In this document: piece after piece, positions 17,448 through 40,254 of the stretch | Numbering within the stretch: position 1 is the stretch's first letter | Layout: the number at the start of each line of letters is the position of its first letter | Origin: an uncultured Candidatus Bathyarchaeia archaeon | Lineage (GTDB): Archaea; Thermoproteota; Bathyarchaeia; 40CM-2-53-6; CAVXDP01 | Length of the DNA stretch: 54,403 bases | Assembly: GCA_964562925.1 (NCBI GenBank) | Contig: CAZLVF010000006.1 | Location: 9,319-63,721, forward strand | Direction of reading: 5' to 3' | Made by a program: the position numbers and the translations under genes | Notes under the pieces: model-generated | The model's input: only the letters and a program-made list of their open reading frames with translations | Database searches by the model: none | Told to the model about the DNA's origin: nothing

Positions 17448-18077
17448 CTATTTCTGAGTTTCTGCAGGCGAGGCTTCGGTCTTATCGAGAGCTTCATCAG
17501 GTGGGTTCGGTCGATGAATAACATCGCCAGGCTTGACTATTTGAAGTTCTTTGAACAGCTTCTGGAGCTGCCTCTTCATGGCCCCGACGTCATGGCTGAG
17601 GTTGAAATAGTCTGCAAAGGTCTCGCTCGTTCTCAAGATTTTTGTCTTTCCAGCCTTCTCGTCAACTACCAAACCCGAGTCCTTCAGTTGTTTCACATAC
17701 TCATACGTGAGTTTTCCCCGGACTTTCACCACATACGCCTGTGAAACAGGCTGTTTTACAGCTATAAACGAGAGAGTCTTCAGTGGCCCCAGAGTCAAGA
17801 GTTGGCGCGTCGCAAGCTTCTTGACAGCTGCCACATACTCGGGTTTCAGCTGCATTACGAACCGTCCATCCTCTAGCTCCAATATCTGAATCGAGCTATG
17901 GATCTGCTCGTACCTCTCGCGAAGTTTCTTGGCGAGGTCGTGAACAGTGCTCTCTGACTTTACTTTGAGGATTGATCCGAGGAGCTTCAGGTCGAGCGGC
18001 CTACCTGTCACGTAGAGCGCAGCCTCAACCATCGCGAGTTGTTCTCTCTCCCTCTGGGATAATGGTTCAGGCTGCAA
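17448..18077 (-). CDS. scpB: segregation and condensation protein B (ScpB, kite subunit)
   Basis: The pattern MVEAALYVTGRPLDLKLLGSIL ... GRFVMQLKPEY ... LKTLSFIAVKQPVSQAYV is the tandem winged-helix ScpB pattern. It overlaps scpA by 11 nt. Confidence 0.85.
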   Translation of the reverse strand: MQPEPLSQREREQLAMVEAALYVTGRPLDLKLLGSILKVKSESTVHDLAKKLRERYEQIHSSIQILELEDGRFVMQLKPEYVAAVKKLATRQLLTLGPLKTLSFIAVKQPVSQAYVVKVRGKLTYEYVKQLKDSGLVVDEKAGKTKILRTSETFADYFNLSHDVGAMKRQLQKLFKELQIVKPGDVIHRPNPPDEALDKTEASPAETQK

Positions 18078-18741
18078 CTGTGGACGTTACCTCTCTGACT
18101 AGTATGGCTATATCGCCAAACTCTTGGTCTTGTTGTAACGTTATCTTTCCTTGGATCGCAAGGAACAGGAGCATTATGAAGTCTCTTACTATGTCTAGGA
18201 AGCGTTTATTTCCAGTTAGGTTGAGAAACGATATCGGGCCTTCTCTCTTGGCTCTCTTGACTAGGTCTGAGTAGAACTCTCCTATGTGCTTGTCGATGTT
18301 CATGAGAAACTCGTCTAGGTGCTTCAGTACGGCGGGCGGTGTTAGGAGAGGCTTCTTTTCCAAGAGAGCTAACCGTTCGCTTTCCAACACTTCCTCTAGG
18401 GTTCTTAGCACCTCAGAGATCGATGTTGACGTATACTCGAACCTTATCGGCATGGGCAGGGCAGGAGGAACGTAGTCTTGAGGTCTGGGTTGAGGAGGTT
18501 TTGGAGGCTCCTCCATCTTGAGAACCTCCTCTGACTTCAGCCTGTGGATTATCGATGATGACAATAGAGCGATTCCTGAGGCGGGGAAGTCGATGTATCC
18601 TTTCTCGTTCATCTGAGCCAAGAAAGAGTTCAGTATGTTGGTCAGGTTGACATCCCATGGCTTCAGCCTATGCACCCTTAGCAGGTCGAATAGGATGACG
18701 TAGGGTGGGCGGAGCCAGAACGGTTTCTCCAGCTCTGTCAC
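18067..18741 (-). CDS. scpA: segregation and condensation protein A (ScpA, kleisin)
   Basis: N-terminal ILFDLLRVHRLKPWDVNLTNILNSFL and C-terminal IVRDFIMLLFLAIQGKITLQQDQEFGDI fit the ScpA kleisin. It overlaps the smc stop by 4 nt. Confidence 0.85.
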   Translation of the reverse strand: MTELEKPFWLRPPYVILFDLLRVHRLKPWDVNLTNILNSFLAQMNEKGYIDFPASGIALLSSSIIHRLKSEEVLKMEEPPKPPQPRPQDYVPPALPMPIRFEYTSTSISEVLRTLEEVLESERLALLEKKPLLTPPAVLKHLDEFLMNIDKHIGEFYSDLVKRAKREGPISFLNLTGNKRFLDIVRDFIMLLFLAIQGKITLQQDQEFGDIAILVREVTSTVAA

Positions 18742-21700
18742 GTTCGTGCCTCCGGCATAGGAAGCGAAACGGCCTGGGAGACTCCTTCTTGGATGTAGAC
18801 CCCGTAGATCCTGTCGGCCCTAGAGATGGTTATGTCCCTTAATGAGACTACGATGAACTGCGACCCTCTCGAGCGTTCTCTAAGTAGATCAGCCAGCCTC
18901 TGTGTGTTGAGAACGTCGAGATGAGCGTCGATCTCGTCAAATATGTAGAAGGGCATCGGGTTGATCGATTGAAGTGCTAGAATGAAACAGACCGTTGCAA
19001 CAGACTTCTCGCCTCCACTCGCGCTGCCGATTGTGAGTTCGGCTTTTCCGGGGAACCTCAGGTAGATGTCCATTCCGCCCTTGAACGGGTCTTCCTGGTT
19101 TTCAAGTAGAAGCCTTCCAGATCCGCCGTTGGATATCTTGGAGAATATCTCTTGGAAGTTTCTGTTCACGCTGTTGAAGGCTTTCATAAATGTATCGTAC
19201 TTCTTTCTCTCCAGCTCGTTCATGAAGTCTATTATGGTAAGCTTTTCATTCGAGAGTTCGTTTATTCTGGTGGAGAGCTGCTTATAGATCTCCTTCTGTT
19301 CTTCATACTGAGTCACGGCAAGCTGGTTCACCGCTCCGATCTCTTCAAGTTCACGTTTAATCAGGTTAAGCGTCGATTCAGCCTCGTTCACTTCTTCAGA
19401 GTCGGCCTGAACCACATCTTGATATCCGAGCTCCTGAAGCTCTTTTAGAAGATATGAGGCCTGTATCTCCTTCTCCTTGAGTTCTCCACTCAACTGGTTT
19501 GTTTCTGTATTAAGTTGCTCATACTTTTCAAAGAGCGCCTTCGTTTGCGACTCTAAGAATTTGAGTTTCGTTTGAAACTCGTCTCTAGTATTTCGGACTG
19601 TAGACAGTTCTTCAGAGATTGATTTGCGTTCGACCTCGAGTTGGGAGAGCTGGTTGAGTGAATCGTCTACGTTTGTCCTCTCTTTCTGGATGCTTTCTTT
19701 TAGTGTGGTTATCTCTTCCTCAAGCTCCGAGACCCGTGTTCTCATCTGTTGGAGGTTTGGTTCTAGGATCTGAATCGATGACTCGAGCGTTCCGATCCTG
19801 CTATCGATCTCTGAGAGTTTCCGTTGGAGTTCGCTGGTTTCTTTCGACAATTCTAGGTGCTTCTGCTGAGATTGGGAGAGCTTTGCAGGATCAACTTTCG
19901 ATCTAGCGGCTTCTCTTCTCTTTATCAGCTCGTCAAGTCTACTTCTAATCTTAGATCTTCTACCACCCATTAGTACGTTTTGATTCTTTTCGTTATGGAC
20001 TTCGACGCTAAGTTCGTCGATCCTCCTGAGAATGTTTGAGAGTGTACTCTTCGCTCTTTGAAGGCTCGTTTCAACATTTGACATCTCTCCATCTATGTGA
20101 ACGATCGATCCTTCAGAGTGAACTTTGTTTTCTTTGAGTGCGTCAAGCTCGGCCTGAAGTCGTTCGACATCCTCTTCGCTCTTGGTGACTAACGTTTCAA
20201 GTGACTTTATCATTCTTTCAAGGTTCTCGACGGCTAGAGTCTTTGAAATCAAAAATTCGATGTCAAGGGGTTTTCGATAGTATCCTCCTTCTATTCCTCC
20301 TTCAGGCTCGTAGACTTCGCCACTTAATGAGACAGCCCTGACGCCGTTCACGGCTGCCATATACGCTGCTTTTTGGCTGTTTGCTAGGACTGTATCTCCA
20401 AAAACAAAGTTGACTGCAGGTTTCAAGGGTTCTTCAACTTGGACGAGGCTTGCAATCGGTCCGATGATGTCAGGGTCGTCCTCGGGCCAATTAACGCTAG
20501 GGATGGATGAGAGGCTCTCCAATGGGACAATCTTTATCCTGCCCATTCTTGTTCGTTTCAGGCTCTCTATGCATTGGACAGCTGATTCTACGTTTTTGAC
20601 AACAAGAGCTTTCATCCATCCGGCTGAAGCTGTTTCCAACGCCTTCCGATAATCCTCTGGAACCTTAACCAGTCTATCGAGCCTTCCAACCACATCTGGA
20701 ATTGCTCCGGCCCGGCCTAGTTCTTCTACCGATTGTAGAGCCTTCTCTTCTGCTCCGAAGGTCTGAACAACGTCCTTTTGAATCTCAAACTCGAAAGTAG
20801 TCGCAGAAGCTCTCTCCACGATCTCCTTAGATTCTCGAATATCACCCAGTTTGCTCTCTTTGAGCTCTGCGTGATCTCTGATCTTCTTCTCTATCTCCTC
20901 CAGTTGTTTCTGCTCCTCGATGCGTAGATTTGCTAGATCTTTAGATCTCTTCTCTATCTCTTCTATCAGCCGTTCATACTCGATCTTCCTACTCTCAAGG
21001 GTCTTTAGATGTCCGAAGACAAGTTGGAGCTTAACCGAGCCTGCGTCTATCTCTGCACCTAGCTTCGCCTCTTCGCAGGACAGTTCATTGATACTATCTT
21101 CCAGATTCTGCAGTTCTTTGTTGAAGGCATCAACCGTCCTTGCAGCGTCTTGGACATCTTTCCATATCTCGGTCTCAACCGTCGTCTTTTCGGTAAGTAC
21201 AGTATACAGGTTCTCTCTGGCTTCTCTCAGCCTTAAGAGCTCAGCCTTGTGGCTTTCAACGGTCTTCACAACTTCGTCTATCTGCTTTTCAAGGTCTTGC
21301 TTCTCCTTTTCAACTCTCTTCAGTCGCGTCTCGCTGGAGCCGGTTTCTGTCTGAGACTTTGCTATCTCCCTAGATCGCTCCCCGATCGTTCGCTCAACCT
21401 CGAACATCCTAGCTGTCCATTGATCAACAGTCTCACGTTCAAGCCTCTGTTTCTCATCCTCGATCTGGACTTTCTCATTTGAAACTCTGTCTCGCTCCTG
21501 TCTTACCCTCTCGGCTTCGACTCGCCTCTTTTCGGAATACTCTCTCTTCTTTGATGCTTCTTCCTGTAAGCTCTTGATCCTGCTCGAAAGCATGAGAGCT
21601 TTAGACCGGTTGAACTCGTCCTTGAGAAATCTATACCTTAAGAAATCGTTTCTCTCTCTTTCGAGAGATTCGACGCGGGATCTTACCTCATCTACCTTGG

Positions 21701-22274
21701 CTGATGCAACCTTCAGGTTCACGTCTGCCTGCTGTAATTGAACCTGAGCCTCAGCCTTCTTCGCATCGTAGACGGCGATTCCTATCATATCCTCAACGAT
21801 CTTTCTTCTCTCTTCAGGTGTAACCTCCGCTAATCTCGTGATCGCATGCTGCGGTACAATGTTGAAGCCTGTAACCTCTATACCGGCCGAGGAGAGAATC
21901 TCAGTAACCTGCTTTCTAGGTATCCTGCGTCCGTTGATTCTGTATACTCCCTCTCCACCCCTGACGAACTCTCTCGATACAGTAACCAAGTCGGAATCGA
22001 CCGGGATCCGTCTATCCGAGTTTTCGAATTGAATAGCCGCATAGGCAGAGCGCAGGTGGGTTTGAGTTGTCTTGGAAATGAGGTCTCCAAGAGACCCGCC
22101 GCGCAACTCTTTCGGGCTGAGTTCACCTAGAGTGAACTTGACGCTGTCCACTATGTTGCTCTTTCCGGAACCGTTGGCTCCTGTGATGACGGTGAAGCCT
22201 CTATCTAATGACAGTGAGACCTTCTTGCCAAAGGTCTTGAAACCTCTCAGGTCGATTCTTTTGATATAGACCAA
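18738..22274 (-). CDS. smc: chromosome segregation protein SMC (canonical, full length)
   Basis: 1178 aa. It has Walker A GANGSGKSN, long coiled coils, a hinge (GPIASLVQVEE...AVSLSGEVYEPEGGIEGG), the signature SGGEKSVATVCFILAL, Walker B FYIFDEIDAHLD, and QFIVVSLR. The start is TTG. Confidence 0.95.
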   Translation of the reverse strand: MVYIKRIDLRGFKTFGKKVSLSLDRGFTVITGANGSGKSNIVDSVKFTLGELSPKELRGGSLGDLISKTTQTHLRSAYAAIQFENSDRRIPVDSDLVTVSREFVRGGEGVYRINGRRIPRKQVTEILSSAGIEVTGFNIVPQHAITRLAEVTPEERRKIVEDMIGIAVYDAKKAEAQVQLQQADVNLKVASAKVDEVRSRVESLERERNDFLRYRFLKDEFNRSKALMLSSRIKSLQEEASKKREYSEKRRVEAERVRQERDRVSNEKVQIEDEKQRLERETVDQWTARMFEVERTIGERSREIAKSQTETGSSETRLKRVEKEKQDLEKQIDEVVKTVESHKAELLRLREARENLYTVLTEKTTVETEIWKDVQDAARTVDAFNKELQNLEDSINELSCEEAKLGAEIDAGSVKLQLVFGHLKTLESRKIEYERLIEEIEKRSKDLANLRIEEQKQLEEIEKKIRDHAELKESKLGDIRESKEIVERASATTFEFEIQKDVVQTFGAEEKALQSVEELGRAGAIPDVVGRLDRLVKVPEDYRKALETASAGWMKALVVKNVESAVQCIESLKRTRMGRIKIVPLESLSSIPSVNWPEDDPDIIGPIASLVQVEEPLKPAVNFVFGDTVLANSQKAAYMAAVNGVRAVSLSGEVYEPEGGIEGGYYRKPLDIEFLISKTLAVENLERMIKSLETLVTKSEEDVERLQAELDALKENKVHSEGSIVHIDGEMSNVETSLQRAKSTLSNILRRIDELSVEVHNEKNQNVLMGGRRSKIRSRLDELIKRREAARSKVDPAKLSQSQQKHLELSKETSELQRKLSEIDSRIGTLESSIQILEPNLQQMRTRVSELEEEITTLKESIQKERTNVDDSLNQLSQLEVERKSISEELSTVRNTRDEFQTKLKFLESQTKALFEKYEQLNTETNQLSGELKEKEIQASYLLKELQELGYQDVVQADSEEVNEAESTLNLIKRELEEIGAVNQLAVTQYEEQKEIYKQLSTRINELSNEKLTIIDFMNELERKKYDTFMKAFNSVNRNFQEIFSKISNGGSGRLLLENQEDPFKGGMDIYLRFPGKAELTIGSASGGEKSVATVCFILALQSINPMPFYIFDEIDAHLDVLNTQRLADLLRERSRGSQFIVVSLRDITISRADRIYGVYIQEGVSQAVSLPMPEART

Positions 22275-31357: not shown

Positions 31358-33250
31358 TTGAAGCCGGCTGCTCTGATAATCATTCTATTGACAGCGCTAT
31401 CATTGATTCCCAACTTCGCCTCTCTCTCTAGTTCTTCATGGAATGAAACCTGGACCGGTTACACTTCCAGGAGGATAGTTCCACTAACGATAAAGGTTGT
31501 ATTCGTTGGATTGAACTCTGATGTACTTGAAACCAAATACATGATGTGGAGGGAGAACCTTCCGGAAAGTCAAACAAACCTGATCTTGGTAGGCGACAAC
31601 AATACTGGAGTCTTCTTCAACCTCACATACGACTTCATCTTCCCGGAGTCGGCCTATAAGAATGAGCTGTTGGCTTATCTCGAGGAGATCGGTCGTGCCG
31701 GACCCGCCTACAACCCATGGTGGGACATGTTCACCTACAATATCTTCTTCGATGCCCGCAAGGTAGAAAGTTGGCTTTACGAGAATAACGCCGAGTATGG
31801 CGGTCTTCCAGAGAACGGGTACACGTTTATCATAGCCAACTTGACCGAGCTCAAATCCGTGACGTATGAACAGATGAACGACCCTAAGTCTTCTCCGCCA
31901 ACCCCTCACTACTACAGTGTCAACTACGAGGACTGGGATAGAGACTACAGGCTTCGATATAGAGAGTTCGCTGTTGCTTGGGGCGGAGCTTACAGGTTAT
32001 GGTTTCTAGATCTAAGCGCTGGTCCCGAGTATTGGACATGGGCGACCGAGTCAGATGTGCCTTATGTACCGCTCCAGGTAGCACTCAAGGCTTTCAACAT
32101 CGATGTCCGCACGCAATTCGGCAGAAGGTGGCTGTCAGAGTACATAGCCGACTACATAGGCGAAGCCGTGAGAAACTTTGCCATTCCACAGTTTGTCTAC
32201 CTTCCTAGATACAGTGGCCGCTACAGAATAGTCGCCTACCTCCTAGACAATAGAACTGAGGAGGAGAGAAAAGAGGTTACGTTAAGATCGACCGTCAACG
32301 CTGAATGGGTTAGCGAAGCCTTCGAACAGCTCTTTCCATACTCGAGAGTGGAAACCTCGGTCAAGATCAAGAGCGTCTCAGACTATCCCGAACTTCAAGA
32401 GCAGATAGCAAACTATACCTATTCTAGCATTGACTCGTCAGGAACACCGTACATCGACCTAAGATCGGTCTACAGTTACCTTCAAGCCCATCTGAAGACA
32501 TTTGTACCCGACTACCGTCGCGACCAAAGAGAGTTCACGATCCCGATCTTTGCCTTTGCATTCTCCGGCAACATCCGATTCGGCTACAGTTACAAATGGT
32601 ACGTTATGGACGAGCCAACATTCAACAGAGACCTCTACGGCATCTCGCTTGGAGACCTTGCCATCATAGGCTTATCCCATGCCGACTTCCTATTGGGCAA
32701 CGAGGTTGATCCCCCACAGCCCAACAAAGGGATCGGATACACACAGCTCATAATCCACGAGGCAGGGCATATGATCGGGCTTATGCATCCGCATCAGTAC
32801 GGCTCCCTAGGCGATTATGTCTCATCCGCTATGAGCTACTATACGTGGGAATACAACTTCAGCCGGTTCGACCTAGACGCGGTGCAAAGAGCTCAAGCAG
32901 ACCAGTTTATAATGGAGGCTTCATCGATGCTGGAGCAGGCTAAGAACACTATGACCGACCGACTACCTTCATTTGAGTTACGGAACAGGATCGACTCAGC
33001 TGAGGATCTATTGACAAAGGCTCAACAACAGTACACGATGATGAACTATGTCTCAGCCCTCCAGTACGCGAAGAGCGCGGTTGAGACCTCGAGAGAAGCC
33101 TTAACAGAGGCGAGGAACCAGTGGCTCGCCTTGCCTATATACACGTTGCTTGGAGTTGTGATCGGGATCGCTATCGGTCAAGTTGGCATCCCGTACATTA
33201 GGAAGAGGAGACTGGAGGGCGCTTCTAGAACGGTGCAAAACCGTTCGTAA
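31358..33250 (+). CDS. secreted, C-terminally membrane-anchored zinc metalloprotease (metzincin-like)
   Basis: TTG start. The signal-like N-terminus is MKPAALIIILLTALSLIPNFASL. HEAGHMIGLMHPH (HExxHxxGxxH, nt 32756-32794) is followed by a possible Met-turn (SSAMSYY). The C-terminus has a TM helix (LALPIYTLLGVVIGIAIGQVGIPYI) followed by RKRR. Confidence 0.75.
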   Translation: MKPAALIIILLTALSLIPNFASLSSSSWNETWTGYTSRRIVPLTIKVVFVGLNSDVLETKYMMWRENLPESQTNLILVGDNNTGVFFNLTYDFIFPESAYKNELLAYLEEIGRAGPAYNPWWDMFTYNIFFDARKVESWLYENNAEYGGLPENGYTFIIANLTELKSVTYEQMNDPKSSPPTPHYYSVNYEDWDRDYRLRYREFAVAWGGAYRLWFLDLSAGPEYWTWATESDVPYVPLQVALKAFNIDVRTQFGRRWLSEYIADYIGEAVRNFAIPQFVYLPRYSGRYRIVAYLLDNRTEEERKEVTLRSTVNAEWVSEAFEQLFPYSRVETSVKIKSVSDYPELQEQIANYTYSSIDSSGTPYIDLRSVYSYLQAHLKTFVPDYRRDQREFTIPIFAFAFSGNIRFGYSYKWYVMDEPTFNRDLYGISLGDLAIIGLSHADFLLGNEVDPPQPNKGIGYTQLIIHEAGHMIGLMHPHQYGSLGDYVSSAMSYYTWEYNFSRFDLDAVQRAQADQFIMEASSMLEQAKNTMTDRLPSFELRNRIDSAEDLLTKAQQQYTMMNYVSALQYAKSAVETSREALTEARNQWLALPIYTLLGVVIGIAIGQVGIPYIRKRRLEGASRTVQNRS

Positions 33251-33728: not shown

Positions 33729-34817
33729 TTAAAGATACTTTTTGATTGTTGGAGGCGATGTCTCGAACCTTTGTAGGTTGGACACTTTGACGCCGACCAG
33801 CCTGATCTTTCTCTTGTCTTCCTCAAACTCTTTGAGAAGGTTTCTCGCTGCGCCAGTGATCGCGCTCTCGTCTATCATGTGATAAGAGAGACTTTTACTC
33901 CTTGTGAAAGTTTCAAAATCTTCGAACCTTACCTTGAGAGTGACCGTTTTGAAGAGAAGCTTCGAGTCTCTTAGCTGAGCGGCTAGTCTAGCGCCAATAG
34001 CGTCAATGGTTTTCGTTACCATCAATACATCATCAACATCTATCTCGAATGTATGTTCACCGCTCAGCGACTTCGGTTCTTGCTCGCCCTCGTACACCTC
34101 GCTTTCATCGGTTCCGTTAGCGACACACCATAGTTCGACGCCATATTTTCCAAGTATTCGTTGTAGGTCCTCTCTTGAAGACCCTGCCAGTTGTCCGATC
34201 GTGTAGATCCCCATATGTTTCAGAACCTCTCTAGTCTTCTTCCCAACTCCGGCGATTTTCGAAGCTGGAAGGGGCGCCAAGAAATCTTTGACCCTGTCGG
34301 GAGTAACTATCGTTAACCCATCAGGCTTCTTGAAATCAGAAGCTATTTTCGCCACGGATTTGTTAGGAGCCACTCCAACCGAGCAAGTCAATCCCACTCT
34401 TTCGGAGATAGCCTTCTTTACAGCCTTCACGAGACTCTCGGGGCTGTCGTACTCCTTAACCCTGCGTGTAACGTCTAGAAATGCTTCGTCGATTCCACGC
34501 TGCTCAAACCTATCCGCGAAGCCTCTTAGAATGTTCATAACCCTCTCACATACCTCGAGATAAAGGTCCATGTCAACGGGCAGGTATACCCCGTTTGGGC
34601 AGAGTCTGTAAGCGGTTGAGATCGGCATCCCAGACCTCACACCGAACGTCCGGGCCTCGTACGAGCAAGTAGAGACGACTCCACGCCCAGTTCCCCCCTT
34701 GGGGTCGGCGCCCACGATAACAGGTTTACCCTTCAGGGAAGGGTTCCTAAAGATTTCAACAGACGCGTAGAAGGAATCCATATCGACGTGGAATATTACT
34801 CTCTGACCTTTGCTCAT
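33729..34817 (-). CDS. dinB: Y-family DNA polymerase IV (Dpo4/DinB)
   Basis: Contains VIFHVDMDSFYASVE, SYEARTFGVRSGMP, IDEAFLDVT, CSVGVAPNK..AKIASD..KPDG and GVGKKT. Confidence 0.92.
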   Translation of the reverse strand: MSKGQRVIFHVDMDSFYASVEIFRNPSLKGKPVIVGADPKGGTGRGVVSTCSYEARTFGVRSGMPISTAYRLCPNGVYLPVDMDLYLEVCERVMNILRGFADRFEQRGIDEAFLDVTRRVKEYDSPESLVKAVKKAISERVGLTCSVGVAPNKSVAKIASDFKKPDGLTIVTPDRVKDFLAPLPASKIAGVGKKTREVLKHMGIYTIGQLAGSSREDLQRILGKYGVELWCVANGTDESEVYEGEQEPKSLSGEHTFEIDVDDVLMVTKTIDAIGARLAAQLRDSKLLFKTVTLKVRFEDFETFTRSKSLSYHMIDESAITGAARNLLKEFEEDKRKIRLVGVKVSNLQRFETSPPTIKKYL

Positions 34818-34856
34818 TCCGATCAGACATGCATCTAATCTGAATAGTTCTCTCTT

Positions 34857-35297
34857 CTAGTTTTTCGACTTGAAGAAGAGCCACTGGTTTTGTCGAAACT
34901 TAACTAGTTTATAGCCGCCTTTCAATATGCTTCCTTCGAGATCAAATTCTAAGACGTGGTCTTCCCGCTTCTTCAGGTTGTATACGCCTTTATCCCATAT
35001 CTCAACCGTTCCCGCCCCGTACTCGCCCTCAGGTATTCTTCCTTCAAAGGTTATGTATTCAACAGGGTGATCTTCAACCTCTATCGCCAGCCTACGTACG
35101 TTAGGTATCGTAGGAGGCTCTTTTGGAACGGCCCAGCTTTTCAGTACGCCATTCATTTCCAAACGGAAGTCGTAGTGGAGGTGGGTTGCTTGATGCTTCT
35201 GAATGACAAACCTCTCTCCGCCAGTTTCGTTCGTCCCTCCTTTGGGCTCGGGCGTTGTCGAAAATTTCCTCTTCTTCCAGTACTCCTCAAGCGACAT
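34857..35297 (-). CDS. stand-alone LigD-type 3'-phosphoesterase (PE) domain protein
   Basis: FVIQKHQATHLHYDFRLEMNGVLKSWAVPKEPP ... EDHPVEY..FEG.IPEGEYGAGTVEIWDKG is the LigD PE signature (HxHxDFRLE, WAVPKG-like, EDHP). 146 aa with no ligase or polymerase domain attached. Confidence 0.85.
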   Translation of the reverse strand: MSLEEYWKKRKFSTTPEPKGGTNETGGERFVIQKHQATHLHYDFRLEMNGVLKSWAVPKEPPTIPNVRRLAIEVEDHPVEYITFEGRIPEGEYGAGTVEIWDKGVYNLKKREDHVLEFDLEGSILKGGYKLVKFRQNQWLFFKSKN

Positions 35298-36147: not shown

Positions 36148-36732
36148 TTATTGGCTAACATCGTCGAAACCTATGAGAACCGTTCCGAAGACGCCTTCCC
36201 GGGTTTCGAATTCAAACCAGCCTTTTATGACTTGGTCGCTCTCGCCGCAAGGTTCGCCGAGAACTAGGTTCGTAAAGATGGATTCCTTCGATGTTTCTGT
36301 ACTTGTTGGCGTGTGGACTATCACGAGTTGGTCAAGTTCAGTCTTCCCTTTGGGTAGCTTCTTCCTGAAGACAGCGAAGTTGTCCCAGAGAAAGACGTTG
36401 TCCTTCGATTCTCTTAGAGCTTCGAGCCTCTCGCTCTCGTAGAGTTCTTCTCCTACTAGGTCGTCTTTGTACATCATCCTCATACGAGGCAATGGAAGAT
36501 ACTTGAACTCTCCCCCCTTGGTAACTATTGCTAGCGTATGCCTTCTTGAGATGGCGTCTCTAGCAGCCCTGTTATAGGTTCTGCACATTCCCATGAACTT
36601 CTTCTCCTCGTTCCTACTCTCAATTTCCAACAGCGATCTCTTCTCAGCATCATCAAGAATCTTAAGCCGTACCACGCCATCGAGCTTTCCGAAGAAATCC
36701 AACGCCTTCCCCAAGCATCTCACCAGAGCCAA
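36148..36732 (-). CDS. hypothetical protein
   Basis: 194-aa ORF with normal-looking composition and no motif I recognise. It is divergent from the SMC-like operon across a 149-bp spacer. Confidence 0.5.
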   Translation of the reverse strand: MALVRCLGKALDFFGKLDGVVRLKILDDAEKRSLLEIESRNEEKKFMGMCRTYNRAARDAISRRHTLAIVTKGGEFKYLPLPRMRMMYKDDLVGEELYESERLEALRESKDNVFLWDNFAVFRKKLPKGKTELDQLVIVHTPTSTETSKESIFTNLVLGEPCGESDQVIKGWFEFETREGVFGTVLIGFDDVSQ

Positions 36733-36881: not shown

Positions 36882-38822
36882 ATGATAAAAGGCATCACCC
36901 TTCAGAACTTCATGTCTTACGACCACGCGTATGTACCACTGGAGCAGGGGCTAAACCTTATCTGCGGCCCCAACGGCGCCGGCAAATCCTCTATACTCTT
37001 GGCCATATCGGTTGTTCTAGGCCAAACCTACACCGAACGCGCTAGGAGACTGAGCGACCTCATCAGACGAGGCCAAGACCAAGCTAGAATAACGATACAA
37101 TTCGACAACACACCGAAGCAGGGACGCAGACCCTTCTCCCAGTATCATATGGATACGGTGAGTGTAACAAGGGTTCTGAAACGCACAGGCGACTACATGT
37201 ATCTGATCCAGAATCGCCCCGCGTCGAAGACTACCGTACTTGAAGCGCTTAACAGGCTTGGACTGAACCCGGACAATATGTTGGTCATAATGCACCAGTT
37301 GATGGTTGGAAGGTTTAGCTCCATATCCGCTCAAGAAAAGCTTCGGATGCTTGAAGAAGTCGTCGGCTTCGAATCGTATCGAACCGACGTGCTTGAGGGA
37401 CAGCATCGGTTAGGGCAGGCTTCAAGCGAAGAAGAAAACCTCGTGAATATCCTCCGGTCCACACAAGAGACCTACGATTATTGGAAGAGAGAGTACGCCA
37501 AGTATCAAAGAAAGAAAGAGCTCCAGTCAAGACTCGATGAGCTACAGAGAGAACTTCTCTGGGCAAAAGTCGAGAAGAAGGAAGGAGCGCTATCCAAACT
37601 CGAAGATAGAATCAACCGTCTGAAACGTTCACTCGAAACTACCGGTCTGAAGGCTTCCGAGGCGAAGGATGAGAGAGAAAAGCACAGTCAAGAATTGGCC
37701 TCAAGCAGGAAGAGGATGAAATCACTGCGGGACGATCAGTTGGCGGAGACTCGAAACGTTGCGATACATGAGACAAACCTCGAATGGATCTCAAAGCTAA
37801 CTATATCCAACCTAGCTGAAAACCGACCTAGTCATCTGGATGAAAACTCGACACAAGTAGTTGACGGCCCGGAAACGATCGTAGACGATGCGCGTCGACT
37901 GGAAGAGCTTCAAAAACTGAAAGAATCCAATCGAAGACTTGAGTCGATCACGGCAGACATAGCTAAACTCGCAGATCAAATAGACCAGGATCTCGCATCC
38001 GTCGTAGACTCCAGCGTTAGATCTGAGGTCGAGTCTTTCAAGATCGGACTGCTCAAAGAGCAGATCGAGCATTTAGAAGCTGAGAGGATTGCAGCACTTG
38101 AGGAGCTGGAACCTCTCAGAACTGAGGCTGAGAAGCTTGGTTCTAGAATCAAGACATCACGAAGAAACTTGGATATAGTGGCTGAGATCAACACGGTCCA
38201 GGAGCAACTCAAGCCATATGCCAACGTTTCCGAAGATGTGGAGAAGATGTTTACGTCCTACACCGGGATGCTTGAAGACCTGAAGGAGAAGGCTGAGCTT
38301 GTCAAGAGGAATAAGCAAGAAGTCCAGGAAGAGTTGAACAAGCGCCTAGAAAAATGGAGGGAGGTAATCGAACAGTTCTTCGACCAGCTAAGCGAGAGAT
38401 ATAGCGATCTCCTAGCTGAGGTTGGAGGAAGTGGAGCCGTCAGGCTGACCAACGGGCACGATATCGAGAAAGCTGGCATCGATCTTCTGGTGGGCTTCAA
38501 GGGTAGCGGTCCGATGCCTCTGGACTCTTTTACTCAGAGCGGAGGTGAACGGAGCGTGGCCCTCATGGCGTTCCTGCTTGCACTTCAACAGTACGTGACC
38601 TGTCCCTTCCGTGGAATCGACGAGTTCGATGTTCATATGGATCCAAGGAATAGGGAGGCTGTCTCAAGGCTGATCGTCTCAAGCTTCGCGGGAACAAGAA
38701 ACGGGCAGTATGTAGCTATCACTCCAAGCCAAGTCGTAATCAAGGATAGTGACGTACACGTTATAGTCGTACAGAATATTGAAGGCCGGTCCATAGTCAG
38801 CGAGGTGAGGCGGAATGATTGA
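36882..38822 (+). CDS. short SMC-like ABC ATPase with Smc5/Smc6-like head motifs, no hinge, no zinc hook
   Basis: 646 aa. The N-terminal head has ITLQNFMSYDHAYVPLEQGLNLICGPNGAGKSS (Walker A, nt 36966-36992) and the Q-loop region NPDNMLVIMHQ. About 335 aa are coiled-coil-like, with a ~35-aa Pro/Gly-containing apex (aa ~300-335). The C-terminal head is QSGGERSVALMAFLLALQQYVTCPFRGIDEFDVHMDPRNRE...GQYVAITPSQV. There is no CxxC. Confidence 0.85.
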   Translation: MIKGITLQNFMSYDHAYVPLEQGLNLICGPNGAGKSSILLAISVVLGQTYTERARRLSDLIRRGQDQARITIQFDNTPKQGRRPFSQYHMDTVSVTRVLKRTGDYMYLIQNRPASKTTVLEALNRLGLNPDNMLVIMHQLMVGRFSSISAQEKLRMLEEVVGFESYRTDVLEGQHRLGQASSEEENLVNILRSTQETYDYWKREYAKYQRKKELQSRLDELQRELLWAKVEKKEGALSKLEDRINRLKRSLETTGLKASEAKDEREKHSQELASSRKRMKSLRDDQLAETRNVAIHETNLEWISKLTISNLAENRPSHLDENSTQVVDGPETIVDDARRLEELQKLKESNRRLESITADIAKLADQIDQDLASVVDSSVRSEVESFKIGLLKEQIEHLEAERIAALEELEPLRTEAEKLGSRIKTSRRNLDIVAEINTVQEQLKPYANVSEDVEKMFTSYTGMLEDLKEKAELVKRNKQEVQEELNKRLEKWREVIEQFFDQLSERYSDLLAEVGGSGAVRLTNGHDIEKAGIDLLVGFKGSGPMPLDSFTQSGGERSVALMAFLLALQQYVTCPFRGIDEFDVHMDPRNREAVSRLIVSSFAGTRNGQYVAITPSQVVIKDSDVHVIVVQNIEGRSIVSEVRRND

Positions 38823-39618
38823 AGAAGGGAACGCGCGGAGCGGGGTCTACCTAGCCTCAGGCAGAACAGAGGTCAGGGAGGTCTTAGAGACATGCGAAGC
38901 GATTCAGAAGAGGAAGTTCAATCCATTTCTATTAGATGTGGAACGTGCAGTAGCGACCCTGAGAAAGTACTTTTCCCGTTGGAAAACGTTCAACGACCAT
39001 TGCCTCGACGCTCGAACCCTCAACAGCCTCACTGAAGTCGTCAGACTTCAGAATAGCCAGCTGAGATATCAGTCGAGTACGCTCTACACTGACCCGAAGC
39101 TCCTCTCTGATAAACTCAGATCTCTCTCGGTCGAGGGTCTCGCCCGGATCTTCCTGAAGAGCTGGCATCCCATAGTTGAGCTTGAGCAGCTTGCGACGAC
39201 TACGGTTAAGGAAGCGCTCCACTATTGGGACACATTGCTCCCCTTTGATGTTAGACGGAAGAGGCTGGAGGCTCGCGAGGCGTGTTCGCCTTTAGCACTT
39301 GACTTGGAGAGTCTGGAGAGTATGGGTATCACCGCTGAGCAGACGTTCTCCGAATCGCTTGAGAAGTTCTGGATGGAGATGAGGCGACATGCTGAGCAAA
39401 GCGGGAAGCTCAGCTACTGGGAGTTTGTGAAGCGTGATAGCTTTGAAGAGACAGCCGCAAGAGCCTATTTCGTCAGTTTTCTGGTCACTTATGGTTATGC
39501 GACTTTGGAGAAACGTGAAAAAGACCTGTTTCTCACACCTCACACCCGAAGGGTGAGGCTCGACCTCGGGAGACTCGTAAGCTTCCCAATTAGCCTCAAG
39601 CCTGGGGAAAGAAGGTAG
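38815..39618 (+). CDS. ScpA-like kleisin paralogue
   Basis: 267 aa. The ATG overlaps the upstream stop by 8 nt. It has block-wise similarity to the canonical ScpA in this window: NPFLLDVERAVATLRKYF vs KPWDVNLTNILNSFLAQM, and FEETAARAYFVSFLVTYGYATLEKREKDLFL vs FLDIVRDFIMLLFLAIQGKITLQQDQEFGDI (C-terminal winged helix). Confidence 0.6.
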   Translation: MIEEGNARSGVYLASGRTEVREVLETCEAIQKRKFNPFLLDVERAVATLRKYFSRWKTFNDHCLDARTLNSLTEVVRLQNSQLRYQSSTLYTDPKLLSDKLRSLSVEGLARIFLKSWHPIVELEQLATTTVKEALHYWDTLLPFDVRRKRLEAREACSPLALDLESLESMGITAEQTFSESLEKFWMEMRRHAEQSGKLSYWEFVKRDSFEETAARAYFVSFLVTYGYATLEKREKDLFLTPHTRRVRLDLGRLVSFPISLKPGERR

Positions 39619-39636
39619 AGACTTAGGAGAACAAGG

Positions 39637-40254
39637 TTGACTCAGCAGAGCGAATCCAACCCACACTTCTACGCTGAGAAGCTCAAGCGGGCAGCTCATC
39701 TACTGTTCTTTAAGCGAGGAAAGGTTCCAGGTGCTAGAGAATGGGAACTGAAAGCGAGACTAGGAAAGAACTACGAAGAGATCCTAACCGACTTGAACAG
39801 GGTTCTAGAAGATCTTGACCTCGAAGTGAAGAGAGCCAGAGATGAAGCCTCTTACAGAGCACCTGATCCCTTATCGGTCGATGAAGAATCTGAGGATCGA
39901 TTTCTTATCCGATTGAAGAGTGAGATGACCCTAACTGAATCTAGGCTCTGCGGCTGGAGGATTGACAACCTCGCGGCTCTTACGATGGCTATAGCCTACG
40001 TGATATCTAAGCAGGGAAAGGCTCCGAGGGCTGAGGTTGAGCAGGATCTCTCGTACAAGTTTGGAAGATGGCGATCGATGAACCTTACTGACATCTTCAT
40101 CAGGACAGGATACCTGAGGGAGGACGAGGAAGGTCTTCTGAGATTGGGTTGGAGAACAAAATCAGAGGTGGATCTGAGAGCTTTGATGACTCTTCTTCTG
40201 GAGGCCAAACCAGAACAACCTCCACCGGAGTCTCAGACAATTGGGAATGATTGA
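39637..40254 (+). CDS. tandem winged-helix kite-like protein (ScpB/MAGE-Nse-like)
   Basis: 205 aa with a TTG start 18 nt after the kleisin stop. There are two WH-like halves: AAHLLFFKRGKVPGAREWELKARLG..NYEEILTDLNRVLEDLDLEV...RFLIRLKSE, and LAALTMAIAYVISKQGKAPRAEVEQDL....MNLTDIFIRTGYLREDEEGLLRLGWRT. This mirrors the ScpB layout. Confidence 0.55.
   Translation: MTQQSESNPHFYAEKLKRAAHLLFFKRGKVPGAREWELKARLGKNYEEILTDLNRVLEDLDLEVKRARDEASYRAPDPLSVDEESEDRFLIRLKSEMTLTESRLCGWRIDNLAALTMAIAYVISKQGKAPRAEVEQDLSYKFGRWRSMNLTDIFIRTGYLREDEEGLLRLGWRTKSEVDLRALMTLLLEAKPEQPPPESQTIGND

Follow-up and report, generated by a model that had tools for sequence, protein, structure and literature searches.

A second SMC-kleisin-kite operon with a hinge-less ATPase, probably SMC5/6-related, in a Bathyarchaeia genome

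We analysed a 54,403-nucleotide stretch of DNA from an uncultured Candidatus Bathyarchaeia archaeon (contig CAZLVF010000006.1; hereafter the window) and confirmed that it carries a three-gene operon encoding an SMC-type ATPase, a kleisin and a kite. The operon as a whole very probably encodes a complex of the archaeal 'SMC5/6-related' type, which TACK and Asgard archaea have as their second SMC complex; we infer its mechanism by analogy. This 'SMC5/6-related archaeal SMC' was defined in Bathyarchaeota, Thaumarchaeota, Verstraetearchaeota and Crenarchaeota (Yoshinaga & Inagaki 2021, PMC8665677), and operons with Nse4-like and Nse1/3-like partners have been described in TACK and Asgard archaea, including Bathyarchaeia (van Hooff, Raas, Tromer & Eme, bioRxiv 10.1101/2024.01.07.573240). 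The system itself is therefore not new, having already been published for Bathyarchaeia; an earlier, sequence-only reading of the window knew of no description of such triads with a dedicated kleisin and kite, and these two studies contain them. Our assignment to the SMC5/6-related group is by subunits, lineages and our own comparisons.

Two SMC operons in the window

The three genes of the operon are co-oriented on the forward strand, and an ORF check recovered each of them together with the strings that the sequence-only reading had quoted from their translations. The SMC-type ATPase gene (36882-38822, 646 aa) ends in a TGA at 38820-38822, and the ATG of the Nse4-like kleisin gene (38815-39618, 267 aa) lies at 38815, producing an 8-nt overlap. 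The kleisin stop codon (TAG, 39616-39618) is followed by an 18-nt spacer containing GGAG and then by the TTG start of the Nse1/Nse3-like kite gene (39637-40254, 205 aa). Re-reading both junctions bore out the tight coupling described earlier, and these junctions indicate translational coupling.

The canonical set lies on the reverse strand (17448-22274), with smc at 18738-22274, scpA at 18067-18741 and scpB at 17448-18077. Pfam identified SMC_N (2.2e-55), SMC_hinge (8.4e-23), SMC_ScpA (2.1e-7) and SMC_ScpB (4.1e-31) in its products. The canonical SMC is a 1178-aa, hinge-bearing protein that scores 594 bits with TIGR02168, over the cut-off; the solved structures that it matches best are those of Pyrococcus Smc, Bacillus Smc and SMC2/4/3/1, and the strings reported for it (SGGEKS, FYIFDEIDAHLD and QFIVVSLR) are all present. 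With all three subunit types recognised in the forward-strand operon, the claim of a second SMC-kleisin-kite operon beside smc-scpAB holds.

Subunits of the second complex

The catalytic motifs of the 646-aa ATPase are intact and invariant across an alignment of its family (A1). From the N-terminus these are Walker A, GPNGAGKS (aa 29-36, 36966-36989), the Q-loop IMHQ (aa 136-139, 37287-37298; I136, M137, H138 and Q139 all invariant), and the ABC signature SGGER (aa 553-557, 38538-38552). The Walker B and D-loop segment FRGIDEFDVHMD (aa 576-587, 38607-38642), which includes IDEFDVHMD at aa 579-587, aligns with PFRVVDEINQGMD of Smc5. It is followed by QYVAITP (aa 609-615, 38706-38726; Q609, T614 and P615 invariant), which aligns with QYFLITPKLL of yeast Smc5, whereas the canonical SMC of the window reads QFIVVSLR at this position.

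Between the head halves, an N-terminal arm (about aa 166-315, 37377-37826) and a C-terminal arm (about aa 331-480, 37872-38321) align with the head-proximal arm and the C-arm of yeast Smc5, respectively. They are joined by an apex turn, RPSHLDENSTQVVDGP (aa 316-330, 37827-37871), marked by P316, G329 and P330, as the earlier description of a short Pro/Gly apex had it. That description also gave the coiled coil as about 335 aa; it is indeed short, but about 315 aa separate the head halves. Each arm, at about 150 aa, would measure about 22 nm if helical. Pfam matched SMC_N (E 1.4e-36) and no SMC_hinge in this protein, and a motif scan found no C..C pattern, the only cysteines being C28 and C574, in agreement with the reported lack of a hinge domain and a CxxC hook.

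The hinge-less architecture is, for the most part, a trait of the ATPase family. Of 49 complete representatives, 45 are 548-685 aa long. Over 128 diverse short members, the heads are the best conserved part (top-residue frequency 0.60-0.67), the N-terminal and C-terminal arms are moderately conserved (0.42), and the apex is the least conserved (0.18, with 34% gaps), its length ranging from 0 to 85 aa; none of the 128 has a CxxC. Rare relatives retain a hinge-like domain or long arms with a CxxC: one 982-aa relative has a hinge-like middle domain and the same kleisin and kite families encoded downstream, and three long relatives carry a central CxxC.

In sequence comparisons the ATPase heads are most similar to Smc5 and Smc6. 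The best PDB match of the single sequence was yeast Smc5 (E 8e-36, 127 bits, versus about 37 bits for Rad50), and a profile of the family ranked Smc5 or Smc6 in all of its top ten places (184-214 bits), above archaeal Smc of Pyrococcus (171), SMC2 (125) and Rad50 (43). The canonical SMC of the window ranks these structures the opposite way, with only 52 bits for SMC5 and 41 for SMC6. Both claims that the sequence-only reading had made about the heads, that they are of SMC rather than Rad50/RecN type and that they are nearer Smc5/6 than the canonical SMC is, are borne out by these scores. Among NCBIfam models the ATPase reached 202 bits with TIGR02169, under the cut-off of 729. In a search of 1.84 billion representative proteins, the family was followed directly by long proteins, roughly 1040-1170 aa in length, with E-values near 1e-33 to 1e-31; of ten that were looked up, five are eukaryotic (one named SMC5-like), one is a hinge-bearing SMC of canonical type and four are unlabelled. 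A head-domain tree of the kind proposed earlier, here a crude neighbor-joining tree built with distance methods on 316 columns from the best matches to the query and without a Rad50 outgroup, separated the canonical SMCs from a group of the ATPase family and eukaryotic Smc5/6-like proteins with 100/100 bootstrap support. Monophyly of the family itself was recovered in 74/100 replicates, or 26/100 with P0439 included.

The 267-aa protein is an Nse4-like kleisin by both profile and fold. Its family profile matched yeast Nse4 (E 3.3e-6) and human EID3/NSMCE4B (E 4.2e-6), Pfam Nse4_C was found in 30 of 34 family members, and its AF2 model retrieved only kleisins at Foldseek ranks 1-12, in line with the earlier identification of a kleisin. 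The N-terminal helical domain (aa 6-91, 38830-39087, + strand; predicted helices 6-31, 42-53 and 59-91, with block pLDDT of about 75-88 over aa 11-80) weakly matches the ScpA N-domain 6ivh_A (E 0.14) and would be the part that binds the SMC neck. The C-terminal winged helix (aa 178-242, 39346-39540, + strand; pLDDT 71-89), where Nse4_C lies, matched the C-terminal winged-helix domain of ScpA (4i99_C; TM(target) 0.79, rmsd 2.1) as well as Scc1-C (1w1w_E) in Foldseek, and it would bind the SMC cap. This domain also aligned with the ScpA of the window in hhalign (E 4.4e-4, 57 columns). The block-by-block parallel to ScpA that had been proposed thus stands for the C-terminal winged helix and is undetectable elsewhere; BLASTP returned no match between the two kleisins of the window, nor between its two kites.

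The 205-aa protein is predicted to be a tandem winged-helix kite with a fold nearest to Nse1 and Nse3 (MAGE). Its AF2 model (pLDDT 76) has two winged-helix halves: domain A (aa 9-93, 39661-39915, + strand), assigned by DSSP as H9-25, H35-42, H46-58, E62-67 and E88-93, and domain B (aa 99-170, 39931-40146, + strand; pLDDT 90-94), assigned as H99-124, E128-130, H131-142, H144-157, E160-162 and E167-170. All five Foldseek matches at E<=1e-3 are kites, namely MAGE-G1/NSE1 (5hvq), JetB (8dk1_E) and Nse1/Nse3 (7dg2), and the MAGE/Nse3-like pattern suspected earlier is consistent with these best folds. By sequence, the kite of the window has no Pfam or PDB match and is not recognisable as Nse1/3, and within its family weak Pfam matches appeared to SMC_Nse1 in 4 of 34 members and to MAGE in one. 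At full length, both the kite and the kleisin give low Foldseek TM-scores (0.2-0.3), since domain orientations differ and the middle of the kleisin is disordered.

Conservation of the operon and alternative explanations

Clustering at 90% identity gave >1000 homologue clusters for the ATPase and >900 each for the kleisin and the kite, numbers that rule out a chance observation. The kleisin gene adjoins the ATPase gene in 77 of 80 related loci, and the kite gene is also present in 72, confirming the synteny expected earlier; these loci span Bathyarchaeia, Nitrososphaeria, Methanomethylicia, Geothermarchaeota and Hadesarchaea. Pfam confirmed the Dpo4 (33729-34817) and LigD-PE (34857-35297) genes near the operon. 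The hinted link to them is unsupported, because no neighbor gene of the window recurs among the 80 loci, where the conserved neighbors are TFB, small proteins without annotation and housekeeping genes. Neither Nse2 nor Nse5/6 was found among the Pfam-annotated neighbors in the window or among the annotated recurrent neighbors, several recurrent families being unannotated.

Could the operon serve defense, as an anti-plasmid or anti-phage system of the Wadjet/MksBEF or Lamassu/MADS type restricting foreign DNA? Smc5/6 and Wadjet each restrict extrachromosomal DNA, JetB is among the top fold matches of the kite, and the ATPase matches PADLOC mad3 (E 9e-41), LmuB (7.5e-22) and JetC (1.4e-8). These PADLOC matches, however, reflect the general resemblance among SMC heads, and the SMC models give higher scores. 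PADLOC matched neither the kleisin nor the kite, so no JetA/JetB or MksE/F is recognised. A nuclease or Toprim partner recurs nowhere among the conserved neighbors, real homologues occur on none of 2.9 million viral contigs searched, and the operon keeps a stable chromosomal place by housekeeping genes in dozens of genomes, as a core-like locus rather than a patchy island. The operon shows no defense-system signature, the suggested plasmid or virus restriction finds no support, and we consider this explanation unlikely.

Even less probable is a repair ATPase of the Rad50/SbcC/RecN type or an ASRP (ClsN/Sph/arcadin-4), with the two small proteins unrelated to it. The short length, the lack of a hinge and the short coiled coil (antiparallel, as in RecN) do resemble RecN and ASRPs, and the central CxxC of the three long relatives resembles the zinc hooks of Rad50 and ASRPs, although the ATPase of the window has none. 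Its matches to NCBIfam models of Rad50 (about 60 bits), ASRP (49.6), and arcadin-4 and RecN (45) fall far under the cut-offs of 300-1000 bits and under its SMC score, and Rad50 came last in both PDB rankings. We know of no kleisin or kite partners for RecN, Rad50 or ASRPs, whereas here both are conserved.

A third reading, in which smc-scpAB was duplicated and the copy is truncated or decaying, or in which the operon is an artefact of assembly or gene calling, would leave these genes without a separate function and is scarcely credible. An SMC of half the normal length lacking a hinge and a kite lacking a Pfam match might suggest as much, but lengths are conserved throughout the homologue clusters, the catalytic motifs are invariant, the heads are well conserved and the gene order is kept across archaeal classes. 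Nor is the operon a recent duplicate, because its sequence similarity to the ScpA and ScpB of the window is undetectable beyond one winged helix.

Proposed mechanism and relation to known SMC complexes

For the SMC5/6-related complex that we favor, structures of Smc5/6 and Smc-ScpAB suggest that the single SMC protein would form pairs whose heads engage around two ATP. One kleisin would bridge each pair asymmetrically: its N-terminal helices would bind one SMC at the neck, and its C-terminal winged helix the other at the cap, while the kites, presumably two, would sit on its central part. DNA may be clamped atop the engaged heads within the kleisin/kite compartment, with ATP hydrolysis cycling the clamp. 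Every experimentally studied SMC complex has, to our knowledge, a hinge or a zinc hook. Because the 646-aa protein has neither, and its arms of about 150 residues end in a poorly conserved loop, they could be joined only via heads, kleisin and arm-arm alignment. On this view the complex would work in genome maintenance as an ATP-gated clamp or tether on DNA close to the heads, rather than as a hinge-dependent long-range loop extruder, with repair or the handling of replication stress as a default guess by homology.

Like the published SMC5/6-related archaeal complex, the operon combines the same three subunit types, occurs in Bathyarchaeia, Nitrososphaeria/Thaumarchaeota and Methanomethylicia/Verstraetearchaeota, and co-exists with canonical Smc-ScpAB; its single SMC gene implies a homodimer. 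Adjacent Nse4-related and Nse1/3-related genes were scored in Bathyarchaeia genomes (Supplementary Table 3 of bioRxiv 10.1101/2024.01.07.573240). Nothing excludes membership. SMC-kleisin adjacency was found there in only 2 of 9 downsampled species, compared with the 77 of 80 loci here.

Eukaryotic Smc5/6-Nse1/3/4 shares the alignable head motifs PFR..DE...MD..NR and QY..ITP, a kleisin with an Nse4-type C-terminal winged helix, a tandem winged-helix kite of MAGE/Nse1 type, and a kleisin-kite architecture rather than HAWKs. It differs in having an Smc5/Smc6 heterodimer in place of one SMC gene and Nse1 plus Nse3 in place of one kite, which here has a single cysteine and no RING domain in its 205 aa; about 390 aa align per Smc5 half, versus about 150 aa per arm helix (~22 nm) in the hinge-less archaeal ATPase. 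Smc-ScpAB has the same triad, homodimeric SMC and operon layout, and its kleisin C-terminal winged helix is weakly alignable, but head identity to the canonical SMC is only about 28-30%, the hinge found in the canonical SMC is missing from the 646-aa protein, and the kite is not ScpB-like at the sequence level.

A 'hinge-less' SMC clade from marine metagenomes affiliated with Actinobacteria (PMC12153180) is likewise a natural SMC homologue with heads and coiled coil but without the hinge. That clade is bacterial and branches with bacterial SMC, with kleisin/kite context unreported, and does not belong to the archaeal Smc5/6-related family. The published archaeal SMC analyses (PMC8665677; bioRxiv 10.1101/2024.01.07.573240) cut out the coiled coil and worked on the head domains, and the ~650-aa hinge-less form goes unmentioned in their searchable text and supplements. 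Relative to that text, what is newly noted here is a family that is mostly without a hinge and 548-685 aa long, its arms (about 22 nm if helical) meeting at a variable apex.

Operon layout and conservation

Three plus-strand genes of the window encode an SMC-type ATPase of 646 aa (36882-38822), a kleisin of 267 aa (38815-39618) and a kite of 205 aa (39637-40254, with a TTG start). All of the sequence strings quoted in an earlier, sequence-only reading of this DNA were found in the three ORF translations. The ATPase and kleisin genes overlap by 8 nt, the kleisin ATG at 38815 lying just ahead of the ATPase TGA at 38820-38822, and the kite TTG start lies 18 nt past the kleisin stop with a GGAG inside the spacer. 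The sequence-only reading had described these genes as a second, miniature SMC-kleisin-kite operon with Smc5/6-like heads; our analysis confirmed the observation and supported its core interpretation. The three genes are conserved and translationally coupled, the ATPase motifs are intact, and the two partner proteins have kleisin and kite folds.

A canonical set lies ~14.6 kb from this operon on the minus strand. It consists of smc (18738-22274; Pfam SMC_N and SMC_hinge, the latter with E 8.4e-23), scpA (18067-18741; SMC_ScpA) and scpB (17448-18077; SMC_ScpB). The SMC_ScpA match is limited to the N-terminal ~60 residues (E 2.1e-7), so this protein is a rather divergent ScpA.

The gene order recurs in other genomes, as the sequence-only reading had proposed to check: across 80 related loci, the kleisin gene lies immediately downstream of the short SMC in 77 and the kite gene is present as well in 72. 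These loci come from Bathyarchaeia, Nitrososphaeria, Methanomethylicia, Geothermarchaeota, Hadesarchaea and other archaeal MAGs, with some contigs labelled bacterial, and the closest ATPase relatives in species-representative genomes are from Bathyarchaeia MAGs (72% identity). Exceptions to the synteny are mostly contig ends. One Geothermarchaeales MAG (L055, 4665-6614) truly lacks both partners beside its short SMC; the gene that follows there is convergent and, from the look of its sequence, presumably GTPase-like. Five operon contigs (L008, L010, L017, L026 and L036) carry the bacterial names Acidiferrales, Acidoferrum, Methylomirabilota, 'bacterium' and Dormiibacterota and are probably mis-binned archaeal contigs.

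The genes surrounding the operon are less constant. The 80 loci contain no counterpart of the window's Dpo4, LigD-PE, flavodoxin, 194-aa upstream ORF or downstream glycosyltransferase-like genes. Since no window neighbour recurs, the proximity of Dpo4 and LigD-PE, to which the sequence-only reading had drawn attention, is not a conserved association. Those recurrent neighbours that are annotated are lineage-specific, such as a TFB gene upstream in 37 Bathyarchaeia loci, and resemble housekeeping synteny particular to each lineage; the remaining recurrent families carry no annotation. Within the window, a stand-alone LigD 3'-phosphoesterase-domain protein (146 aa, LigD_N E 5e-40) abuts a Dpo4/DinB-type Y-family polymerase, forming a small repair pair at 33729-35297 (minus strand). 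The 194-aa ORF (36148-36732, minus strand) is divergent from the operon and has no Pfam or PADLOC match, and a 630-aa ORF (31358-33250, plus strand) has no Pfam match. Upstream of the short SMC, 15 of the 80 loci carry on the opposite strand an ORF of a separate family, 226-286 aa long and without a Pfam match (L048:5227-5949, minus strand, with equivalents in L049, L050, L055, L060, L061, L062, L064, L069, L072, L073 and L075-L078). All of these loci are from the more distant lineages (Nitrososphaerales, Methanomethylicia, Geothermarchaeota, Hadesarchaea and some Bathyarchaeia), and the window lacks the family, which could represent a fourth partner or mere conserved synteny.

Relationships of the heads, kleisin and kite

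Pfam SMC_N covers residues 1-631 of the ATPase as a split head (E 1.4e-36), and the Walker A motif (aa 29-36), the Q-loop residue Q139, the signature SGGER (aa 553-557) and the Walker B/D-loop IDEFDVHMD (aa 579-587) are invariant in the family alignment. As a single sequence searched against all PDB sequences, the ATPase matched yeast Smc5 best (E 8e-36), followed by Pyrococcus Smc (1e-29) and then human SMC5, with Rad50 at just 2e-8. When a profile of 14 family sequences was used instead, the ten best matches were yeast and human Smc5 and Smc6 (184-214 bits), with Pyrococcus Smc (171 bits), SMC2 (125), SMC3 (122), SMC1 (116), SMC4 (96) and Rad50 (43) below them. The window's canonical SMC produced the opposite order (Pyrococcus Smc 370 bits, SMC2 217, SMC5 52, SMC6 41). 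The Smc5/6-like head motifs to which the sequence-only reading had pointed are visible in the profile alignment, where the family's PfRaiDEFDvHmDPknRE pairs with PFRVVDEINQGMDSRNER and qyvaitPgq with QYFLITPKL.

When 1.84 billion representative proteins were scanned with HMMER without filters, long proteins (~1040-1170 aa, E ~1e-33 to 1e-31) came directly under the family. Ten of these were looked up. Five are eukaryotic (a Sycon ciliatum 'SMC protein 5-like', two fungal proteins, a EukProt entry and a protein of the protist Chromosphaera perkinsii); of the others, one is a canonical-type SMC with a hinge and four have neither name nor source organism. Neighbour-joining (NJ) analysis separated canonical SMCs from the family together with eukaryotic Smc5/6-like proteins in 100/100 bootstrap replicates, in a crude distance-based tree of 316 head columns whose taxa were the best matches to the query, without a Rad50 outgroup. 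The NJ tree is consistent with published ML/Bayesian trees, for which it and the PDB ranking are a proxy and not a replacement; the link to the published trees was drawn from taxon overlap and these proxies. Collectively, the comparisons suggest that the ATPase heads group with eukaryotic Smc5/Smc6 and not with canonical SMC or SMC1-4.

The window kleisin alone matched Nse4_C below threshold (E 0.004) and the PDB entries for Nse4 and EID3 with E 0.3-0.4. With a family profile of 34 sequences from diverse loci, the C-terminal third matched yeast Nse4 (E 3.3e-6) as well as human EID3/NSMCE4B (E 4.2e-6), and there was a weak match to the ScpA N-domain (E 0.14); 30 of the 34 members match Pfam Nse4_C. 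The AlphaFold2 model has a helical N-domain (aa 6-91), a low-confidence middle bearing conserved aromatic residues, and a C-terminal winged helix (aa 178-242). Foldseek returned kleisins at ranks 1-12, with full-length matches to Nse4 and RAD21, and superposed the winged helix on the ScpA C-WHD with a TM(target) of 0.79 and an rmsd of 2.1 Å. Profile and predicted fold thus point to an Nse4-related kleisin encoded with the ATPase. The block-by-block parallel to the window's ScpA claimed in the sequence-only reading held for the C-terminal winged helix (hhalign E 4.4e-4) and failed elsewhere, where there was no alignment; BLASTP of the window's two kleisins against each other found no similarity.

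The kite was identified by fold comparison alone, as sequence-only search did not succeed. The window kite had no Pfam, NCBIfam or PDB sequence match, a 34-sequence profile was also blank against PDB, and among its relatives Pfam SMC_Nse1 matched weakly in 4/34 and MAGE in 1/34. The model (pLDDT 76) comprises two winged-helix domains in tandem, and all five Foldseek matches at E<=1e-3 are kites: MAGE-G1 and NSE1 (5hvq), JetB (8dk1_E), and Nse1 and Nse3 (7dg2). Further matches were MAGE-A4, MAGE-A3 and MukE. The differing orientation of the two domains kept TM-scores low (~0.3). The model supports a kite fold with Nse1/3 as nearest relatives, a fold-level likeness that does not by itself demonstrate orthology. 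The tandem winged helices and MAGE/Nse3 likeness noted in the sequence-only reading were recovered. The kite showed no similarity to the window ScpB by BLASTP or hhalign, which fits the published split of archaeal kites into separate Nse1/3-like and ScpB-like sequence archetypes (bioRxiv 10.1101/2024.01.07.573240). We therefore regard the protein encoded next to the kleisin as Nse1/3-like and not ScpB-like, with weak support at the sequence level.

A system of this kind has already been published. Archaeal SMCs have been divided into a canonical and an 'SMC5/6-related' group, the latter known chiefly from TACK metagenomes (Crenarchaeota, Verstraetearchaeota, Thaumarchaeota and Bathyarchaeota), with a canonical SMC also present in 44 of 80 carriers (PMC8665677). 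A second operon type with an Nse4-related kleisin and an Nse1/3-like kite was described by van Hooff et al., whose Supplementary Table 3 includes genomes of Bathyarchaeia in which an Nse4-related and an Nse1/3-related gene are neighbours (bioRxiv 10.1101/2024.01.07.573240). Like the archaeal SMC5/6-related complex, which ranges over TACK and Asgard archaea and often accompanies canonical Smc-ScpAB, the window operon is from a member of the Bathyarchaeia and shares its window with the canonical set. It has every defining feature of that complex and is a further instance of it.

Several better-known complexes share parts of this organization. Prokaryotic SMC models, those of canonical Smc-ScpAB, ranked first for the ATPase in NCBIfam, but at 202 bits (TIGR02169) and 155 bits (TIGR02168) the scores were far under the curated cut-offs of 729 and 567; there was no SMC_hinge match, and the partners matched neither SMC_ScpA nor SMC_ScpB, ruling out this assignment. 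The eukaryotic Smc5/6 complex proper is an Smc5/Smc6 heterodimer joined by hinges, whereas the operon has one hinge-less SMC gene and one kite. Eukaryotic Nse1 carries a RING finger; the window kite, with 205 aa and a single cysteine, has none. No Nse2 SUMO ligase and no Nse5/6 subunit was found among the window neighbours (flavodoxin, an ORF without annotation and other unrelated genes) or the annotated recurrent neighbours, and the eukaryotic complex was likewise ruled out. Of the remaining ATPases, each of the NCBIfam Rad50, ASRP, arcadin-4 and RecN models scored <=62 bits. The Rad50 cut-offs are 700-1087, and the ATPase lacks the zinc-hook CxxC. For ASRP (ClsN/Sph1/Sph2) the score was 49.6 bits against a cut-off of 300, again with no CxxC. 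For RecN (TIGR00634) it was 45.2 bits against 407.85, and RecN, which acts in bacterial SOS repair, has no known kleisin or kite, whereas the window ATPase keeps both as conserved partners. These three were rejected.

A defensive complex of the Wadjet (JetABCD) or MksBEF(G) type combines a JetC/MksB ATPase with a JetA/MksF kleisin, a JetB/MksE kite and a JetD/MksG nuclease, and JetB was among the kite matches. This likeness is at the fold level only; the JetC model reached just 31.5 bits, the kleisin and kite had no PADLOC match, and no nuclease was present in the window neighbourhood or among annotated recurrent neighbours. The best PADLOC match of the ATPase was mad3 of MADS (E 9e-41, 138.6 bits, over the N-terminal 267 residues), which we read as probable generic SMC-head similarity because the partner proteins lacked defence matches; PADLOC matches in general amounted to this, and membership in a defence system was rejected. 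So was a mobile-element origin: a scan of viral contigs recovered no homologues, its sole matches being three N-terminal stretches of 78 residues with 31% identity. As a default guess drawn from homology, the complex encoded by the window operon might serve in repair or replication-stress handling.

Short arms without a hinge

The ATPase has no Pfam SMC_hinge match and no C..C motif, with two cysteines in all. Its head halves are separated by ~315 aa, in which P316, G329 and P330 mark the turn; this gives about 150 residues per arm, or ~22 nm if helical. That it lacks a globular apex is suggested by length, Pfam, motif and alignment. Short-SMC ORFs in 79 related loci span 581-683 aa, and 45 of 49 complete 50%-identity family representatives fall at 548-685 aa. 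Across 128 short members, the top-residue frequency was 0.60-0.67 in the heads, 0.42 in the arms and 0.18 in the apex, which has 34% gaps and a length of 0-85 aa. None of the 128 has a CxxC, and phmmer with a canonical hinge as query found no match in the family. As judged from these sequences, the short hinge-less architecture is a family trait and not peculiar to the window gene.

If the structures of Smc5/6 and Smc-ScpAB are a guide, the ATPase would form a homodimer in a presumed 2:1:2 complex, in which the kleisin N-terminus would bind one SMC neck and its winged helix the other SMC cap, kites would sit on the central kleisin, and DNA would be clamped on the ATP-engaged heads. Because there is no hinge and no hook and the apex is not conserved, the dimer is expected to be held solely by heads, kleisin and arm alignment, and the complex would serve as an ATP-gated, head-proximal clamp or tether for DNA. 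Co-occurrence of this complex with canonical Smc-ScpAB in one genome implies a putative division of labour between the two in archaea.

Nowhere in the main texts, the 2024/25 preprint supplements and the literature searched are archaeal SMC5/6-related proteins described as short or hinge-less. In the 2021 study, a length filter of 500-1500 aa lets 650-aa proteins through, and the coiled coil was removed before analysis (PMC8665677). One 'hinge-less SMC' paper was found, on a marine clade affiliated with Actinobacteria (PMC12153180). The hinge-less short arms and the variety of apex forms may be the new parts, and are worth follow-up. We put at slightly under even the chance that prokaryotic Smc5/6 relatives in most TACK lineages are natural 'mini-SMC' complexes, which kept the full head, kleisin and kite module while shedding the hinge and over half of the arm. 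If so, this SMC lineage would need neither hinge-mediated dimerisation nor long arms for its core function, and a head-proximal DNA clamp would be indicated as its ancestral and sufficient activity. It has long been asked what part the hinge and 50-nm arms play in entrapping DNA and extruding loops, and what the head/kleisin/kite module is capable of by itself. A three-protein, homodimeric, hinge-less SMC-kleisin-kite machine of about half the canonical mass is small enough to suit structural and single-molecule work. Its biochemistry would also bear on the origin of eukaryotic Smc5/6, since the operon belongs to the archaeal lineage thought to be its source.

Apex forms within the family

Three apex forms occur in one family: a hinge-like region, none (548-685 aa, the great majority), and long arms with a CxxC. 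The first is represented by P0407 (982 aa), a family protein in which the globular middle region matches SMC_hinge best among Pfam profiles, over 104/116 profile positions. This match is sub-threshold (E 0.0076) and a PDB sequence search with the region was uninformative, so we term it hinge-like and not a proven hinge. The third is represented by P0387, P0391 and P0395 (1016-1047 aa), in which a zinc-hook-like CxxC lies exactly mid-length; the one CxxC-form locus examined (L084, 2105-5248) has no adjoining kleisin or kite.

In the NJ tree, P0407 and P0439 took weakly supported basal positions in the family (49-74/100), and the CxxC forms were nested among short forms in 100/100 replicates, their long arms apparently re-elongated within the short clade. 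An early loss of the hinge in TACK, with hooked long arms gained secondarily in one sub-lineage, would be a reasonable but unproven account of these placements. At the P0407 locus (L085, 4014-8261), the gene is followed directly downstream by a kleisin (E 4.7e-39) and a kite (E 3.7e-34) of the same families as those of the short forms. An Lhr-type helicase gene and a DUF763 gene lie just downstream of this operon.
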